Counted from the first letter of the stretch, positions 1 to 8,475 are shown. The stretch: 8,475 nucleotides of DNA from a virus (IMGVR_UViG_2698536301_000009), one strand, 5' to 3'. Notes: generated from the letters alone by a model not told the origin. Numbers and translations are program-made.

Positions 1-846
1 CCTCCTGAGAGACGGGATTTACGCGCATCCAGTGCATCACGCATGACGGTGATCGCATCGGTGCTGTTAACAAGTTCATCAGCCAGTCCGGCATCAATGG
101 CCTCCTGACCGCTGTACACTGCAGCCTCGGTATCCAGCACAGCCTGCACAGACAGGCCGGTATATGCCGACACCTTCTGCGCAAACATCTGGCGGGTTGC
201 GTCCATCCGGGACTGCAGTGTCTCCCGGACGTCATCCGGAAGATGGCTGTAGGGATTGCCATCCACCTTATGGCTGCCGCTGTAAATCAGCGTGATTTCC
301 ACACCCTGTTTCTCCAGGGCAGCACCGTAATTACTGTGAGCCATCATGACGCCGATGGAGCCTGTCCGGGCGGTCTGCGTGACCAGACGCCGGGAGGCGG
401 CACTGGCAAGCAGCTGACCTGCACTAATGATGTCAGCGCAGTCAAATGCCCCCGCCACCATTCCGCCTGGCGTGTCCATATCGAGCAGAATGCCGTCCAC
501 CATCGGGTCGCTGGCAGCCTGTTGCAGACGGGCGATAATGCCGTTGTAACCGGTCATCCCCGAGTACGGCTGCAGCGCCCGCGTCCGGCTGACCAGCGTG
601 CCGGACACCGGCAGCACGGCGATGCCGTTCATGACCTGATAACTGCGGGCCTGTCGTGGTCCGTCATCATCACCGAATAATGCCAGCGTCGCGAGTGCCT
701 CCTGGGCAGTCAGGCTGTCGCCGGACACCGCATCCGTCAGGCGGCTGATCCCAAGCTGGCCTGCAAGCGCACAAAAGAAAACCCGCGCATAGGCGGGTTC
801 AAGCATCAGCGGCTCATTAAAAGCCATGCTGGCAATATGCGGGAGA

Positions 847-866
<20 letters not shown>
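1..866 (-). CDS. C: Head protease / minor capsid protein C (lambda gpC-like), 5' portion only; the gene runs off the window start
   Basis: Minus-strand translation from GTG at 866 gives MTAELRNLPHIASMAFNEPLMLEP... and the window start reads ...VLDTEAAVYSGQEAIDAGLADELVNSTDAITVMRDALDARKSRLSGG, matching lambda gpC as I recall it. Start overlaps the 3' end of B by 20 nt, as in lambda. Not in the ORF track because no stop lies within the window. In-frame internal ATGs at 206 and 188 could mark the nested scaffold Nu3 start, but this is not resolved. Confidence 0.85.
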
Positions 867-4549
<3,683 letters not shown>

Positions 4550-5190
4550 TCTGACAGGTGCCTCTCACTTTGGGCGTGGAGCCACGGATGGACTTTGGCC
4601 AGACCGAGCCTTCAATACGTTTGTCGCCAAGGAACGTCGGAGAGCCTTCCTGTTCAATATCCTCATCAAAGGCAGCAAGTTCATCATAACCCGCCACATC
4701 CACTGACTTTTCACGGTAGTTTTTTGCCGCTTTACCGCCCAGGCACCAGAAGCCACGACCATTGGAAAAACGCTTCATAGTGAGCGTGTTATCCCGGTGC
4801 TTTTTGCCATACCACGGAGCCAGCGCCAGCAGCGACGGAATATCGCGGATGGTCGGCTCAACGTGGGTTTTCATAAAGTTCTCGGCATCACCATCCGTCG
4901 GCAACCAGATAAGGGTGTTGCGCTGCTTATGCTCTATAAAGTAGGCATAAACACCCAGCAGCATTTTGGAATAACCGACACGGGCAGACTTCACCACATT
5001 CACCTCACGGATGTAGTCGCTGCCCATCGCATTCATGATGGCCCGCTGAAAGGGCAGTGTTTCCCAGCGCCCTTCCTGGTATGCGGATTCTTTCGGGAGA
5101 TAGTAATTAGCATCCGCCCATTCAACGGCGGTCTGTGGCTCCGGCCTGAACAGTGAGCGAAGCCCGGCGCGGACAAAATGCCGCAGCCTG

Positions 5191-5736
5191 TTAACCTGAC
5201 TGTTCGATATATTCACTCAGCAACCCCGGTATCAGTTCATCCAGCGCGGCTGCTTTGTTCATGGCTTTGATGATATCCCGTTTCAGGAAATCAACATGTC
5301 GGTTTTCCAGTTCCGGAAAACGCCGCTGCACCGACAGGGGGATCCCGTCGAGAATACTGGCAATTTCACCTGCGATCCGCGACAACACGAAAGTACAGAA
5401 TGCGGTTTCCACCACTTCAGCGGAGTCTCTGGCATTCTTCAGTTCCTGTGCGTCGGCCTGCGCACGCGTAAGTCGATGGCGTTCGTACTCAATAGTCCCT
5501 GGCTGGAGATCTGCCTCGCTGGCCTGCCGCAGTTCTTCAACCTCCCGGCGCAGCTTTTCGTTCTCAATTTCAGCATCCCTTTCGGCATACCATTTTATGA
5601 CGGCGGCAGAGTCATAAAGCACCTCATTACCCTTGCCACCGCCTCGCAGAACGGGCATTCCCTGTTCCTGCCAGTTCTGAATGGTACGGATACTCGCACC
5701 GAAAATGTCAGCCAGCTGCTTTTTGTTGACTTCCAT
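5191..5736 (-). CDS. Nu1: Terminase small subunit (lambda gpNu1)
   Basis: 181-aa ORF MEVNKKQLADIFGASIRTIQNWQEQGMPVLRGGGKGNEVLYDSAAVIKWYAERD..., matching lambda gpNu1 in length and sequence by recall, including the N-terminal winged-HTH region. Its 3' end overlaps the A start by 26 nt, as in lambda. Confidence 0.93.
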   Translation of the reverse strand: MEVNKKQLADIFGASIRTIQNWQEQGMPVLRGGGKGNEVLYDSAAVIKWYAERDAEIENEKLRREVEELRQASEADLQPGTIEYERHRLTRAQADAQELKNARDSAEVVETAFCTFVLSRIAGEIASILDGIPLSVQRRFPELENRHVDFLKRDIIKAMNKAAALDELIPGLLSEYIEQSG

Positions 5737-5757
5737 TGTTCATTCCACGGACAAAAA

Positions 5758-5875
5758 CAGAGAAAGGAAACGACAGAGGCCAAAAAGCTCGCTTTCAGCA
5801 CCTGTCGTTTCCTTTCTTTTCAGGGGGTATTTTAAATAAAAACATTAAGTTACGACGAAGAAGAACGGAAACACC
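5758..5875 (-). promoter_or_regulatory. cosB: gpNu1-binding R elements (R1 about 5761-5779, R2 about 5801-5820, R3 about 5857-5875) with an AT-rich IHF-type bend site (about 5828-5850) between R3 and R2
   Basis: gaaaggaaacgacag at 5763-5777 is a perfect 15-bp inverted repeat of ctgtcgtttcctttc at 5802-5816; a third related copy gaacggaaacacc lies in 5857-5875. The order relative to cosN and Nu1 is the lambda cosB arrangement by recall. Confidence 0.75.
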
Positions 5876-5913
5876 TTAAACCGGAAAATTTTCATAAATA
5901 GCGAAAACCCGCG

Positions 5914-5925
5914 AGGTCGCCGCCC
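5914..5925. other. cosN: the 12-nt cohesive-end sequence (aggtcgccgccc on the plus strand = reverse complement of lambda GGGCGGCGACCT)
   Basis: Exact match to the lambda cohesive end as recalled, flanked on the right by cgtaacctgtcg (lambda right-end terminus) and on the left by cccgcgaggt... (lambda left end). The sequence is continuous across cos. Confidence 0.85.
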
Positions 5926-5960
5926 CGTAACCTGTCGGATCGCCGGAAAGGACCCGCAAA

Positions 5961-5977
5961 ATGATAATAATTATCAT
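5961..5977. repeat. Short palindrome atgataa-taa-ttatcat in the cosQ-proximal region
   Basis: 7-bp perfect inverted arms with a 3-nt spacer, read directly from the sequence, about 36-52 bp from cosN on the right-end side. I could not place cosQ exactly from memory. Confidence 0.4.
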
Positions 5978-6124
5978 CTGCATGTCACAACGTGCATCTA
6001 CGCCATCAAACCACGTCAAATAATCAATTATGACGCAGGTATCATATTAATTGATCTGCATCAACTTAACGTAAAAACAACTTCAGACAATACAAATCAG
6101 CGACACTAAATACGGGACAACCTC

Positions 6125-6358
6125 ATGTCAACGAAGAACAGAACCCGCAGAACAACAATCCGCAACATCCGCTTTCCTAACCAAATGATTGAACAAATTA
6201 ACATCGCTCTTGATCAAAAAGGGTACGGGAATTTCTCAGCCTGGGTCATTGAAGCCTGCCGCCGGAGACTGTGCTCAGAAAAAAGAGTTTCTCCTGAAGC
6301 AAACAAAGAAAAGAGTGACATTACTGAATTGCTCAGAAAACAGATCAGACCAGATTGA
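6125..6358 (+). CDS. Small basic hypothetical protein, possibly a ribbon-helix-helix DNA-binding protein; cos-proximal accessory ORF
   Basis: 77-aa ORF MSTKNRTRRTTIRNIRFPNQMIEQINIALDQKGYGNFSAWVIEACRRRL... Arg/Lys-rich N-terminus, then a short strand-like IRNIRF followed by two helix-like segments, an RHH-like layout. Family membership is my inference. Weak GGGA ribosome-binding site 8 nt upstream. Local sequence is AT-rich compared with the head genes. Confidence 0.55.
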   Translation: MSTKNRTRRTTIRNIRFPNQMIEQINIALDQKGYGNFSAWVIEACRRRLCSEKRVSPEANKEKSDITELLRKQIRPD

Positions 6359-6414
6359 AGCAATTTAGATAATCGTGCAGACTACGCCCCTCATATCACA
6401 TGGAAGGTACTACA

Positions 6415-6825
6415 ATGGCTCAGGTTGCCATTTTTAAACAAATATTCGATAAAGTGCGAAATAATTTAAACTATCACTGGTTTTATTCTGAACTAAAACG
6501 TCACAATGTCTCACATTACATTTACTATTTAGCTACAGAGAATATTCATCTTGTTCTTGAAAACGATAATACGGTTTTAATAAAAGGACAGGGTAAGGTT
6601 GTAAATGTAAGATTTTCAAAAAATAAATGCCTTATAGAAGCCACCTTAAAAGGATTCAAATCAGGAGAGTTATCATTTTACGAATACAGGAAAAATCTTG
6701 CTACAGCAGGGGTTTTCAGATGGATTACAAATATCCACGAAAACAAAAGGTATTACTATACCTTTGATAATTCATTACTCTTTACTGAGAACATTCAGAA
6801 CACTACACAAATATTTCCGCACTAA
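6415..6825 (+). CDS. Hypothetical protein, possibly YbcV/DUF1398-like (the lambdoid 'putative envelope protein' family)
   Basis: Track ORF is 6400..6825 (141 aa). The second ATG at 6415 follows a GGAAGG Shine-Dalgarno-like motif (6402-6407) with 7-nt spacing and gives a 136-aa product [18 protein letters not shown]... The family assignment is from memory of similar prophage proteins and is unverified. AT-rich codon usage. Confidence 0.6.
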
Positions 6826-7081
6826 ATCATAACGTCCGGTTTCTTCCGTGCCAGAACCGGACTCGCTGGCATGATGAAATATGTGTACCCGGTAACCCCG
6901 GTGTGCATCGTTTTTGATTATTCCCGCACACTCGCGCAGAAGGAGTTCCCCGTCGGGCTACGGTCTCTGTTAATACGGGAATACGGCGACGATACAGCGC
7001 ATGATGTGTCAGGCTTGAATACCTTTATCCTTTAAAAGGGATATCAGTTAAGTTATCCCGTGTAGGGTATAAACCATTATC

Positions 7082-7108
7082 AAAGCCACTCTGTAGGAAG
7101 TGGCTTTT
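7082..7108 (+). terminator. Candidate rho-independent terminator for the plus-strand accessory ORFs
   Basis: aaagccact (7082-7090) pairs with agtggcttt (7099-7107) around an 8-nt loop ctgtagga, followed by a T; 9-bp stem with a short T tract. It sits between the convergent plus-strand ORFs and the minus-strand lysis genes. Confidence 0.35.
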
Positions 7109-7316
7109 GTAATGGCAATAAAAAGCCCCGCGAATGCGAGGCTAAATCCTGGTATTTGTAATGACTGGCTCTTATCTCAACGCAGCCCCTTACCGCGCGC
7201 AAAATGCTCAATATCAAGCATCAGCAATGAGATGTTTAATCTGGATTCACTCCAGAAGTGAGCACCACCCTGTCTACAGAGCCAGATGTGAAGGATGATG
7301 AGTAAAATTATCGCTA

Positions 7317-7784
7317 TCATCGAAGGCATTGCGTCCTGATGTATTCCTGAAGCGTTCTCAGTGCTGTTTGGTCGCGGATAATTCCGTCCCGGACACCGAG
7401 AACGTTTCGTCCAGCAACTGGAGAGAGTTCGACGGTGGCATCATTGCCCATGCCGGAGGCGCTGGAGGTTTCGGCTGAGGATGGCACAGGGCATTTTCCT
7501 TTGACGAACACCCGACCACCATTATCAAGCTTGCGCCGAAGAGCATCATTTTCAGCTTTCGCATCAGCTAACTCCTTCGTGTATTTATCATCGAGTGCAT
7601 CAGCATCACGCTGGCGCTGCTGCATGTCAGTAATGGTGGCGTTCGCCTTCTCCAGTTCACTGGCCTTGTTATCGCGCTGTTCTTTGTAGGCGATTGCATT
7701 ATCACGGTAATGATTAACAGCCCATGACAGGCAGACGATGATGCAGATAACCAGAGCGGAGATAATCGCGGTTACCCTGCTCAT
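7317..7784 (-). CDS. Rz: Spanin, inner-membrane subunit (Rz-like, i-spanin)
   Basis: Track ORF 7317..7796; the likely start is ATG at 7784 ([31 protein letters not shown]...), which overlaps the R stop (ATGA). N-terminal transmembrane segment then a coiled-coil-like charged region, related to lambda Rz by recall. Confidence 0.9.
7358..7564 (-). CDS. Rz1: Spanin, outer-membrane lipoprotein subunit (Rz1-like, o-spanin), embedded in the +1 frame of Rz
   Basis: 68-aa [24 protein letters not shown]... with a signal peptide and lipobox (VVGC) followed by a proline-rich stretch [11 protein letters not shown]. Lies wholly inside Rz in a different frame (7784-7564 = 220, not a multiple of 3), the classic Rz/Rz1 arrangement. 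Confidence 0.8.
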
Positions 7785-8278
7785 TGTTGCCCCCACAAAC
7801 AGACCTCACGCTCAATCTCACGACGAGTCATCAGGCCTTTCCATTGCTTACCGCCAGCGTATGCCCAGCGACGTAGCTGGTCACATGCGCCCTTGATATC
7901 GCCCTGGTTTATTTTGCGAAGAAGAGTAGATGTTCTGAAATTGCCTGCGCCCACGTTATAGACGAACGAGTAAAGAGCGCCGCGCGTTGTTTCCGGTATA
8001 TCGACTTTGATGTACGGGTTAATTTGTCTGGCTACCGTGGCAAGGTCTTTATTCAGGAGGGCTTTGCATTCTGCTTCGGTATACGTTTTACCGGGAATGA
8101 TGTCTTTTCCTGTATGCCCGTGACATACAGTCCATACGCCAACGATATCTTTGTATGGTATGTAGCTGACACCTTCCAGACCATCGTTACCACTTGGGCC
8201 AGTGATTAACACTGATGCTATAGCAATTGCTCCGCCACCAATAGCAGCAGCAACGGCTTTTCGTAATGATGGAGGCAT
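7781..8278 (-). CDS. R: SAR endolysin (phage 21 R-type, T4-lysozyme fold / GH24 muramidase)
   Basis: 165-aa [57 protein letters not shown]... The Gly/Ala-rich weakly hydrophobic N-terminal segment (about residues 8-27) fits a signal-anchor-release domain; E35, D44 and T50 sit in the catalytic-triad positions of R21-type lysozymes. Near-identical to phage 21 R as I recall it. Confidence 0.93.
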
Positions 8279-8475
8279 TATTCACCTCTCGCAGCCTTGC
8301 GCTTATCTTCTTTAATCTTGAAATAAAGGTTTGTCAGGTACGTCAGCAGGCCAAATACCAAGCTACCCAGCACACCTATTGCTGCCCACTGTGAGGGCGT
8401 GACTTTATCGTAAGCGTAAACTGACCGCCGTATGTAGCCATCAGACGAGAATTGGTAACTTAGACGCCCATCTGA
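8278..8475 (-). CDS. S: Holin-like protein, 3' portion only (C-terminal transmembrane helix plus charged tail resembling a phage 21 S pinholin); start lies beyond the window end
   Basis: The frame is open to the window edge; 65 codons read [65 protein letters not shown]. The stop TAA overlaps the R start (TAATG). The C-terminal helix and [13 protein letters not shown] tail resemble S21 by recall; the N-proximal visible part does not (see findings). Confidence 0.65.

Follow-up and report, generated by a model that had tools for sequence, protein, structure and literature searches.

The window, the whole stretch of 8,475 nucleotides analysed here, is with a probability of about 0.9 the late region of a lambdoid Escherichia coli prophage of the 434/DLP12/Kati type in reversed orientation (all its late genes are on the minus strand), with genes S, A and C broken, and it is best read as decaying. 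Judged by sequence comparison, it is a mosaic that joins, across cos, a lambda-type packaging and head module (cos and terminase included) to a 21-type SAR-endolysin lysis module. Real as it is, the mosaic is an ordinary one: the join is not notable, being the usual arrangement in phage 434, DLP12 and Kati, and 80% or more of the window is found in 2326 of the 5426 complete E. coli genomes (approx. 43%). Pfam/PHROG matches were obtained for every gene, and an Rfam scan of the whole window returned no RNA family match. The features, with the evidence for each, are as follows.

1-866, minus strand: C, S49 prohead protease/scaffold, 5' 288 codons, running off the left end of the window (99.0% identity to lambda gpC)
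847-2448, minus strand: B, portal protein (98.1% identity to lambda gpB, 60.3% to the phage 21 portal; PF05136)
2445-2651, minus strand: W, head-tail joining protein (100% identity to lambda gpW; PF02831)
2648-5216, minus strand: A, terminase large subunit, frame-disrupted (ORFs and identity to lambda gpA)
3715-4999: tandem duplication of 643 bp within A (copy 1, 3715-4356; junction base, 4357; copy 2, 4358-4999)
5191-5736, minus strand: Nu1, terminase small subunit of lambda specificity type (PF07471, E 9e-101)
5760-5876, minus strand: cosB, with R1 at 5775-5760, R2 at 5818-5803, IHF site I1 at 5852-5840 and R3 at 5876-5861 (alignment and 434 coordinates)
5914-5955, minus strand: cosN and cosQ, with cohesive-end bases 5925-5914 (lambda alignment) and cosQ at 5949-5955 (GGGTCCT on the minus strand; converted from the 434 annotation)
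6125-6358, plus strand: YlcI/YnfO-family gene (DUF3950), opposite to the late genes (PF13132, E 9e-20; YlcI/YnfO in ET665; matches K-12 ylcI)
6400-6825, plus strand: DUF1398 gene, YbcV/lambdap78 homologue (PF07166, E 3e-43)
7177-7329, minus strand: hypothetical 50-codon ORF directly after Rz, with a 13-nt overlap (phrog_11822, E 2e-36)
7317-7784, minus strand: Rz, i-spanin (PF03245)
7358-7564, minus strand: Rz1, o-spanin lipoprotein, in another frame inside Rz (PF06085, E 4e-21)
7781-8278, minus strand: R, SAR endolysin (GH24 muramidase) of R21/RrrD type (PF00959, E 9e-46)
8278-8409, minus strand: S, 3' fragment of an S21/EssD-type pinholin gene, codons 29-71 (43 codons; TMD2 and C-terminal tail; PF04971)
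8411-8475, plus strand: left end of an IS66-family (ISEc23-like) element beginning GTAAGCGTAAACTGACC (65 bases identical to annotated IS66-like/ISEc23 left ends)

Based on comparison of each module with lambda (NC_001416) and phage 21 (OL657228), a check proposed in the preliminary description, the head genes were assigned to the lambda type and S and R to the 21 type. The Nu1, A, W, B and C proteins share 97–100% identity with their lambda counterparts versus 51–73% with those of phage 21, and the DNA of the head region 97.3–98.5% versus 66–72%. Nu1 agrees with lambda Nu1 at 180 of 181 residues (99.4%) and is 51.9% identical to the phage 21 small terminase (gp1); identities of W, B and the visible part of C to phage 21 are 51–61%. 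The first part of the preliminary description, that these five genes are essentially lambda-identical, thus holds for the protein identities and fails for the integrity of two of them, A being duplicated and frameshifted and C lacking 54 bp. The cosN, cosB and cosQ sites are identical or nearly identical to those of lambda. In the three-way alignment with phage 21, cosN has the lambda sequence and the R3, R2 and R1 segments are those of lambda and clearly unlike those of phage 21, which points to a different packaging specificity of the latter. The cosB sites were placed by hand conversion of the coordinates in the 434 record (OL657226), the window–434 alignment being gapless there; R1 and R2 coincide with an inverted repeat (I1) detected in the window. 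Since the left and right ends of lambda meet at 5925/5926, cos is intact and uncut.

Across cos, the lysis genes show the S–R order of phage 21 with overlapping stop and start codons. Lambda instead encodes the S105 holin and, as R, a soluble transglycosylase; DNA similarity of these genes to S or R of the window is not detectable. The endolysin is identical to R21 (PDB 3HDE) at 159 of 165 residues (96.4%) and to DLP12 RrrD (4ZPU) at 161 of 165 (97.6%), and matches PDB entries 3HDE, 3HDF and 4ZPU at E values of about 1e-108. The catalytic triad E35/D44/T50 is kept, in the E-X8-D-X5-T spacing that serves as the criterion for SAR endolysins (PMC9239132), and residues 8–26 form a Gly/Ala-rich SAR segment (seven Ala, three Gly, one Ser and one Thr), identical in R21 and RrrD. 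By analogy with these two proteins, which have solved structures and are 96–98% identical to it, R would be released from the membrane upon depolarisation or by a pinholin.

Rz and Rz1 form an embedded two-component pair, Rz with an N-terminal TMD and Rz1 as a lipoprotein in the other frame, with a segment VVGC ahead of its mature part. The DNA of the N-terminal half of Rz (7537-7784) is 88–92% identical to lambda, 21 and 434 (88.7% to lambda), whereas the C-terminal half (7317-7536) has no DNA match in these three phages; the overall protein identity of Rz is about 62%, and Rz1 shares 61–63% with its lambda and 21 counterparts. On this sequence evidence, the C-terminal half of Rz together with Rz1 represents a third allele that differs from both the lambda and the 21 one, and the lysis cassette is itself mosaic, with S and R of DLP12/21 type and the spanin C-terminal part of the third type. 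The DNA of 7537-8409 is 89.9% identical to phage 21, 93.4% to DLP12 and 93.6% to 434. The preliminary description of a 21-type cassette with a SAR endolysin and a pinholin-like S was therefore correct as to the types (R is 96.4% identical to R21, and S matches PF04971), but only a fragment of S is present and the spanin C-terminal part is of another allele. The third spanin allele, the S fragment with its IS66 end, the duplication in A and the deletion in C had all gone unmentioned there.

The two modules were said to lie on opposite sides of cos with an AT-rich accessory block between them, and so they do: the block between cos at 5925/5926 and the lysis genes (5926-7316) has a GC content of 31–48%, compared with 53–65% in the head genes. 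Its DUF1398 gene has 76% protein identity to lambdap78 and 83–85% DNA identity to lambda and DLP12. The 50-codon ORF, labelled hypothetical in ET665 and EC1515, occupies the place of bor in lambda, 21, 434 and DLP12 and has no DNA match in any of the four. A promoter and terminator scan of 5700-7400 gave counts at shuffle expectation, with a single convincing terminator-like hairpin (minus strand, 7143-7124).

The pairing of a lambda-type head with a 21-type lysis module is already known from phage 434 and DLP12. Phage 434 shares with the window the lambda-type cos, Nu1, A, W, B and C (DNA 97.3–97.9% identical; 97–99% for the head), cosB and cosQ at the same positions, a DUF3950 gene adjoining cos, and a class II pinholin, SAR endolysin and N-terminal half of Rz at 93.6% identity. 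It differs in possessing bor and a lambda-type Rz C-terminus with Rz1, in lacking the DUF1398 gene and the 50-codon ORF, and in having S, A and C intact. Closer still are phage Kati (PP925833) and the ET665, EC1515 and ECCTRSRTH03 prophages, which are collinear with the window at 98–99.7% identity across 1-8410 (Kati: 99.3% over 5191-8409) and share its accessory block, 50-codon ORF and third-type spanin allele. None of the four has the duplication in A, the 54-bp deletion in C or an IS66 element in the holin gene. EC1515 and ECCTRSRTH03 are full-length intact prophages with the order Q ... essD-rrrD-Rz ... DUF1398-YlcI-cos-nohD-A-W-B-C-D-E-tail. Literature searches on PhiR/ECOR13 recombinant phages and on DLP12 essD/rrrD yielded nothing directly relevant. 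The layout had also been called typical of pathogenic E. coli, which does not fit the closest genomes (frog, swine, chicken, dog, wastewater and human isolates) or its presence in K-12. Nor do the modules fix the likely host range, as had been suggested: in lambda this is set by the tail tip and fibre genes, which lie outside the window.

Three lesions separate the window from these relatives. The pinholin gene is cut at 8410/8411, after codon 28, by the IS66-family element, so that TMD1 and the dual start of a complete pinholin (dual start, SAR-type TMD1, TMD2) are missing from the window. The remaining fragment matches PF04971 ('Bacteriophage P21 holin S') at profile positions 24–63 of 64 only, is the same as K-12 EssD across its 43 residues and has 86% identity to S21. 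The same 65 bases of the element stand directly 5' of tnpA-tnpB-transposase in E. coli TUM13064 and 2014EL-1346-6; the window stops 65 bp into the IS, and the tnpA, tnpB and tnpC genes of an IS66-family element, its 8-bp target duplication and the remainder of S would lie beyond that point. A group II intron at 8411, raised by several matches reaching 12–18 nt upstream of the junction, was rejected because these bases directly precede IS66-family tnpA-tnpB-transposase genes elsewhere.

In A, the reading frame changes after codon 286 as a result of the duplication. What can still be read in frame is a product of 310 amino acids (5216-4284) with the ATPase domain only; across 286 amino acids, this N-terminal fragment shares 99.3% identity with lambda gpA. 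GpA_ATPase lies in this fragment and GpA_nuclease only in an out-of-frame downstream ORF with no natural start, hence no continuous frame carries both domains. In C, comparison with ET665, Kati and lambda revealed an in-frame loss of 54 bp at position 426, corresponding to residues 148–165 of lambda gpC (18 residues), and the Pfam Peptidase_S49 match begins at profile position 19 in the window, compared with position 3 in lambda. The nucleophile of gpC we take to be Ser166; a literature search on the catalytic serine gave nothing usable.

The main competitor of a decaying prophage, appreciably less probable and still to be taken seriously, is a Kati-like temperate phage that is intact and inducible; the A duplication and the C deletion would then be artefacts of assembly or consensus building, e.g. 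a chimera of two co-resident, 98%-identical lambdoid prophages. The three lesion junctions (A, C and IS/S) were absent from every other public sequence searched, so the duplication and the deletion could be assembly errors of the source record. Exact searches returned no match for the A junction in metagenome contigs, for the C junction in genome contigs and for the IS/holin junction in genome and metagenome contigs; against complete E. coli genomes, the top matches of the junction queries were two-piece only, with the reference structure. The 310-residue truncated gpA was not on record in an exact look-up. Misassembly is invited by the median of four places per E. coli genome that match the window. 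The two copies in A, which differ at 14 sites, bear different natural alleles, copy 2 being 100% the ET665 allele and copy 1 carrying a lambda-like patch (3977-4295), and identity to ET665 is 98.7% to the left of the junction versus 99.7% to the right. However, a genuine unequal exchange between two prophages predicts the same pattern as a chimeric assembly, and the IS66 end at S codon 29 exactly copies a real IS terminus and would by itself disrupt the pinholin gene. We regard it as rather unlikely that the duplication is a real scar of an illegitimate exchange in which two lambdoid prophages of the same cell, or a prophage and an infecting phage, took part.

We consider it highly improbable that the lysis end has been retained by the host as a holin-independent SAR-endolysin/spanin cassette, e.g. 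to remodel the envelope or release vesicles, freed from phage control by the IS insertion. The genes for R, Rz and Rz1 are intact, only 4 of 165 residues distinguish R from the crystallised RrrD, and SAR endolysins can escape from the membrane spontaneously when no holin is present (PMC9239132). Yet a very recent IS insertion equally predicts intact R and Rz, the absence of the IS/S junction from every other genome searched gives no sign of retention over time, and the promoter signal is at chance level in 5700-7400, a scanned part that excludes R and the IS junction.

Identity with the K-12-type DLP12 cryptic prophage itself, as an orthologous fixed remnant, is just as poorly placed and was rejected on gene content. 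In its favour, PGAP names essD, rrrD and nohD in the relatives, the S fragment is 100% EssD, and DLP12 (essD-rrrD-rzpD/rzoD-borD-ybcV-ybcW-ylcI-nohD-aaaD) likewise combines a 21-type pinholin and SAR endolysin with lambda-type Nu1/cos (DNA identity 98.2% in nohD/cos and 93.4% in essD-rrrD). Against it, DLP12 ends 309 bp into A without W, B and C, carries borD and ybcW that the window lacks, and has a ybcV only 83–85% identical and a lambda-type Rz C-terminus with Rz1; moreover, the closest relatives of the window are whole prophages in which no head or tail gene is missing.

By analogy with lambda and phage 21, an intact element of this kind would produce a single late transcript running from S-R-Rz/Rz1 across cos to Nu1-A-W-B-C, with the oppositely oriented DUF3950 and DUF1398 accessory genes carried in the AT-rich block between Rz and cos. 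Nu1 would bind the lambda-type R sites of cosB and gpA would nick cosN, the DNA being packaged into proheads built on the gpB portal and processed by gpC. At the end of infection, the S21-type pinholin would depolarise the inner membrane and thereby free the membrane-tethered SAR endolysin to degrade the cell wall, and Rz with Rz1 would disrupt the outer membrane. With its pinholin split, gpA frameshifted and 18 residues lost from gpC, the present copy should neither package DNA nor time lysis. The preliminary description treated the element as intact; with S, A and C all disrupted, the copy as sequenced is best read as a defective prophage.

The value of this result lies mainly in annotation: the copy should be labelled a defective lambda-like prophage, and not an intact or pathogen-associated phage, with the IS-interrupted pinholin gene, the frameshifted terminase gene and the internally deleted prohead protease gene marked as such. 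If the duplication in A were nevertheless a true scar, it would be a rare snapshot of an out-of-register join in the module shuffling of lambdoid phages, of a kind that is usually lost.

Comparison of the window with the genomes of lambda (NC_001416), phage 21 (OL657228), phage 434 (OL657226) and the cryptic K-12 prophage DLP12 bore out the main interpretation of the preliminary description, namely that a lambda-type packaging and head module is paired with a SAR-endolysin lysis module of the phage 21 type; per-module identities, the alignment of cos and the PDB matches of the endolysin support it alike. All late genes lie on the minus strand, and Pfam and PHROG family assignments were concordant for every gene.

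Genes of the window (families from Pfam and PHROG)
8409-8278, minus, holin (S) fragment
8278-7781, minus, R
7784-7317, minus, Rz
7564-7358, minus, Rz1, embedded in Rz
7329-7177, minus, 50-codon ORF (phrog_11822)
6400-6825, plus, DUF1398 accessory gene
6125-6358, plus, DUF3950/YlcI accessory gene
between the accessory genes and Nu1, cos
5736-5191, minus, Nu1
5216-2648, minus, A
2651-2445, minus, W
2448-847, minus, B
866-1, minus, C (first 288 codons)

DNA identity of window segments to lambda; 21; 434; DLP12
1-4356 (C, B, W, 3' part of A): 97.3%; 66-69%; 97.3%; no match
4358-5925 (5' part of A, Nu1, cos): 98.5%; 68-72%; 97.9%; 98.2% (from 4909)
5926-6287 (right of cos): 93.9%; no match; 97.9%; 98.2%
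6342-7001 (DUF1398 region): 82.5%; no match; no match; 83.4%
7317-7536 (C-terminal half of Rz, Rz1): no match in any of the four
7537-7784 (N-terminal half of Rz): 88.7%; 87.9%; 92.3%; 88.3%
7537-8409 (N-terminal half of Rz, R, S fragment): matches only to 7784; 89.9%; 93.6%; 93.4%

The head DNA is thus 97.3-98.5% identical to lambda versus 66-72% to phage 21, and the segment 4358-5925 stops precisely at lambda base 1, the adjoining one starting at lambda base 48502. At the protein level, Nu1, W, B and the visible part of C share 99.4, 100, 98.1 and 99.0% identity with lambda, and 51.9, 50.8, 60.3 and 60.7% with phage 21, respectively. The near-identity to lambda noted for Nu1, A, W, B and C therefore holds for these four proteins (98.1-100%), but A is duplicated and frameshifted and C lacks 54 bp. 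In a three-way alignment of window, lambda and phage 21, cosN, cosQ and the cosB sites R3, R2 and R1 have the lambda sequence, whereas the R sites of phage 21 are clearly different; since the subsites are those of lambda and the R sites unlike those of 21, the predicted packaging specificity is lambda's. The AT-rich accessory block previously noticed between cos and the lysis genes is real, as GC content is 31-48% from cos to Rz, compared with 53-65% in the head genes. Within this block, on the strand opposite to and outside the head operon, lies the DUF1398 (YbcV/lambdap78) gene, labelled 'head protein' in PHROGs and several phage records, probably a propagated annotation error.

The R and S regions have no DNA match in lambda. 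R shares 96.4% protein identity with its phage 21 counterpart and the C-terminal 43 residues of S share 86%, with no meaningful lambda match for either; K-12 EssD, the DLP12 pinholin, is 100% identical to the S fragment. R matched PDB entries 4ZPU (RrrD, the DLP12 endolysin) and 3HDE/3HDF (phage 21 lysozyme) with E about 1e-108, and retains E35, D44, T50 and the SAR segment. Judged by sequence, its triad and N-terminal segment correspond to those of SAR endolysins, which carry E-X8-D-X5-T and a weakly hydrophobic Gly/Ala-rich segment (PMC9239132). The 21-type assignment of the cassette does not extend to the C-terminal half of Rz and Rz1, whose products are only about 62% identical to the lambda, 21, 434 and DLP12 counterparts; this allele is common to the Escherichia phage Kati, Ayreon and P22-like Salmonella phages. 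Being unrelated at the DNA level to those of lambda, 21, 434 and DLP12, it places a recombination joint inside Rz near 7537, and the lysis cassette is itself mosaic, with this part of the spanin genes as a third allele. The window has no bor; the 50-codon ORF directly after Rz occupies the position where lambda, 21, 434 and DLP12 carry that gene. This conserved ORF has a hydrophobic N-terminus and a 13-nt overlap with the Rz stop, and a terminator-like hairpin is found 3' of it (7143-7124).

The pinholin-like S is of 21-type sequence, but only codons 29-71 remain, and the first transmembrane domain (TMD1) and dual start are lost. Homology to relatives ends at 8410 in every case, and the last 65 bases (8411-8475), starting GTAAGCGTAAACTGACC, recur unchanged in other genomes, as left ends of elements annotated as IS66-family (ISEc23-like) that continue with tnpA-tnpB-transposase. 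The IS end sits after pinholin codon 28. The 22 codons that it contributes contain no stop in the holin frame, and a fusion ORF could thus run on into TMD2. Strain TUM13064 has an IS of this type ~90 bp upstream of another essD, and the bases preceding the IS end resemble those in the window (TTTATC), a hint of target preference.

A tandem duplication of 643 bp (3715-4356, base 4357, 4358-4999) lies within gene A, which is 2.57 kb long here and 1.93 kb in lambda. As 643 is not divisible by 3, gpA is frameshifted and stops after 310 residues, leaving the ATPase domain only. The copies differ at 14 sites: the second (4358-4999) is the allele of the collinear prophage in E. coli ET665, the first carries a lambda-like patch at 3977-4295, and junction base 4357 (A) is unlike either flank. 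Two readings fit this pattern: a recombination out of register involving two related prophages, or a chimeric assembly. Compared with lambda, Kati and ET665, gene C has lost 54 bp in frame at 426. The deletion takes out residues 148-165 of lambda gpC, at the beginning of the S49 peptidase domain, and with them the first 16 positions that the Peptidase_S49 profile would match. Directly after it comes Ser166, which we take to be the catalytic nucleophile; the base next to the deletion is also altered (ATC to ATT, synonymous). Searches of complete E. coli genomes, genomes representative of species, metagenome contigs and the protein-position index found none of the three lesion junctions (IS end, duplication, deletion); all three are private to the source record. 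The changes in A and C may be of biological or of assembly origin.

By analogy with lambda and phage 21, a Q-dependent late transcript would run from S-R-Rz/Rz1 through cos into the head genes; Nu1 would bind cosB, gpA would nick cosN and translocate the DNA, and the pinholin would depolarise the membrane and free the SAR endolysin, with the spanins completing lysis. Given the split pinholin gene, frameshifted terminase and shortened protease, we infer that this copy is a defective prophage.

The combination of lambda head and 21 lysis genes is already known and common. In phage 434, whose cos subsites are those of the window, lambda-type head genes accompany a pinholin and a SAR endolysin of the 21 type; DLP12 couples essD-rrrD to a lambda-type nohD (its Nu1-type gene) and cos; and Kati is 99.3% identical across 5191-8409. 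(The Kati record, at 4101-5986, gives the terminase large subunit as a 1746-bp CDS and a separate 144-bp ORF versus one 1926-bp gene, reflecting either a frameshift in the record or the start codon chosen.) Of 5426 complete E. coli genomes, 2326 have 80% or more of the whole window in a single place, the best matches being isolates from frog, swine, chicken, dog, wastewater and human, and the prophages of EC1515 and ECCTRSRTH03 comprise Q, a moron block, essD-rrrD-Rz, the accessory block, cos and complete lambda-like head and tail genes. Given such broad occurrence, K-12 included, the arrangement is not tied to pathogenic E. coli, of whose lambdoid prophages such module shuffling had been called typical. 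Nor do these modules fix the likely host range, as had been proposed, because in lambda this is set by the tail tip and fibre genes, which lie outside the window. What this record adds is at the level of annotation only: a third spanin allele, the lack of bor and three inactivating lesions in an otherwise familiar lambdoid arrangement.
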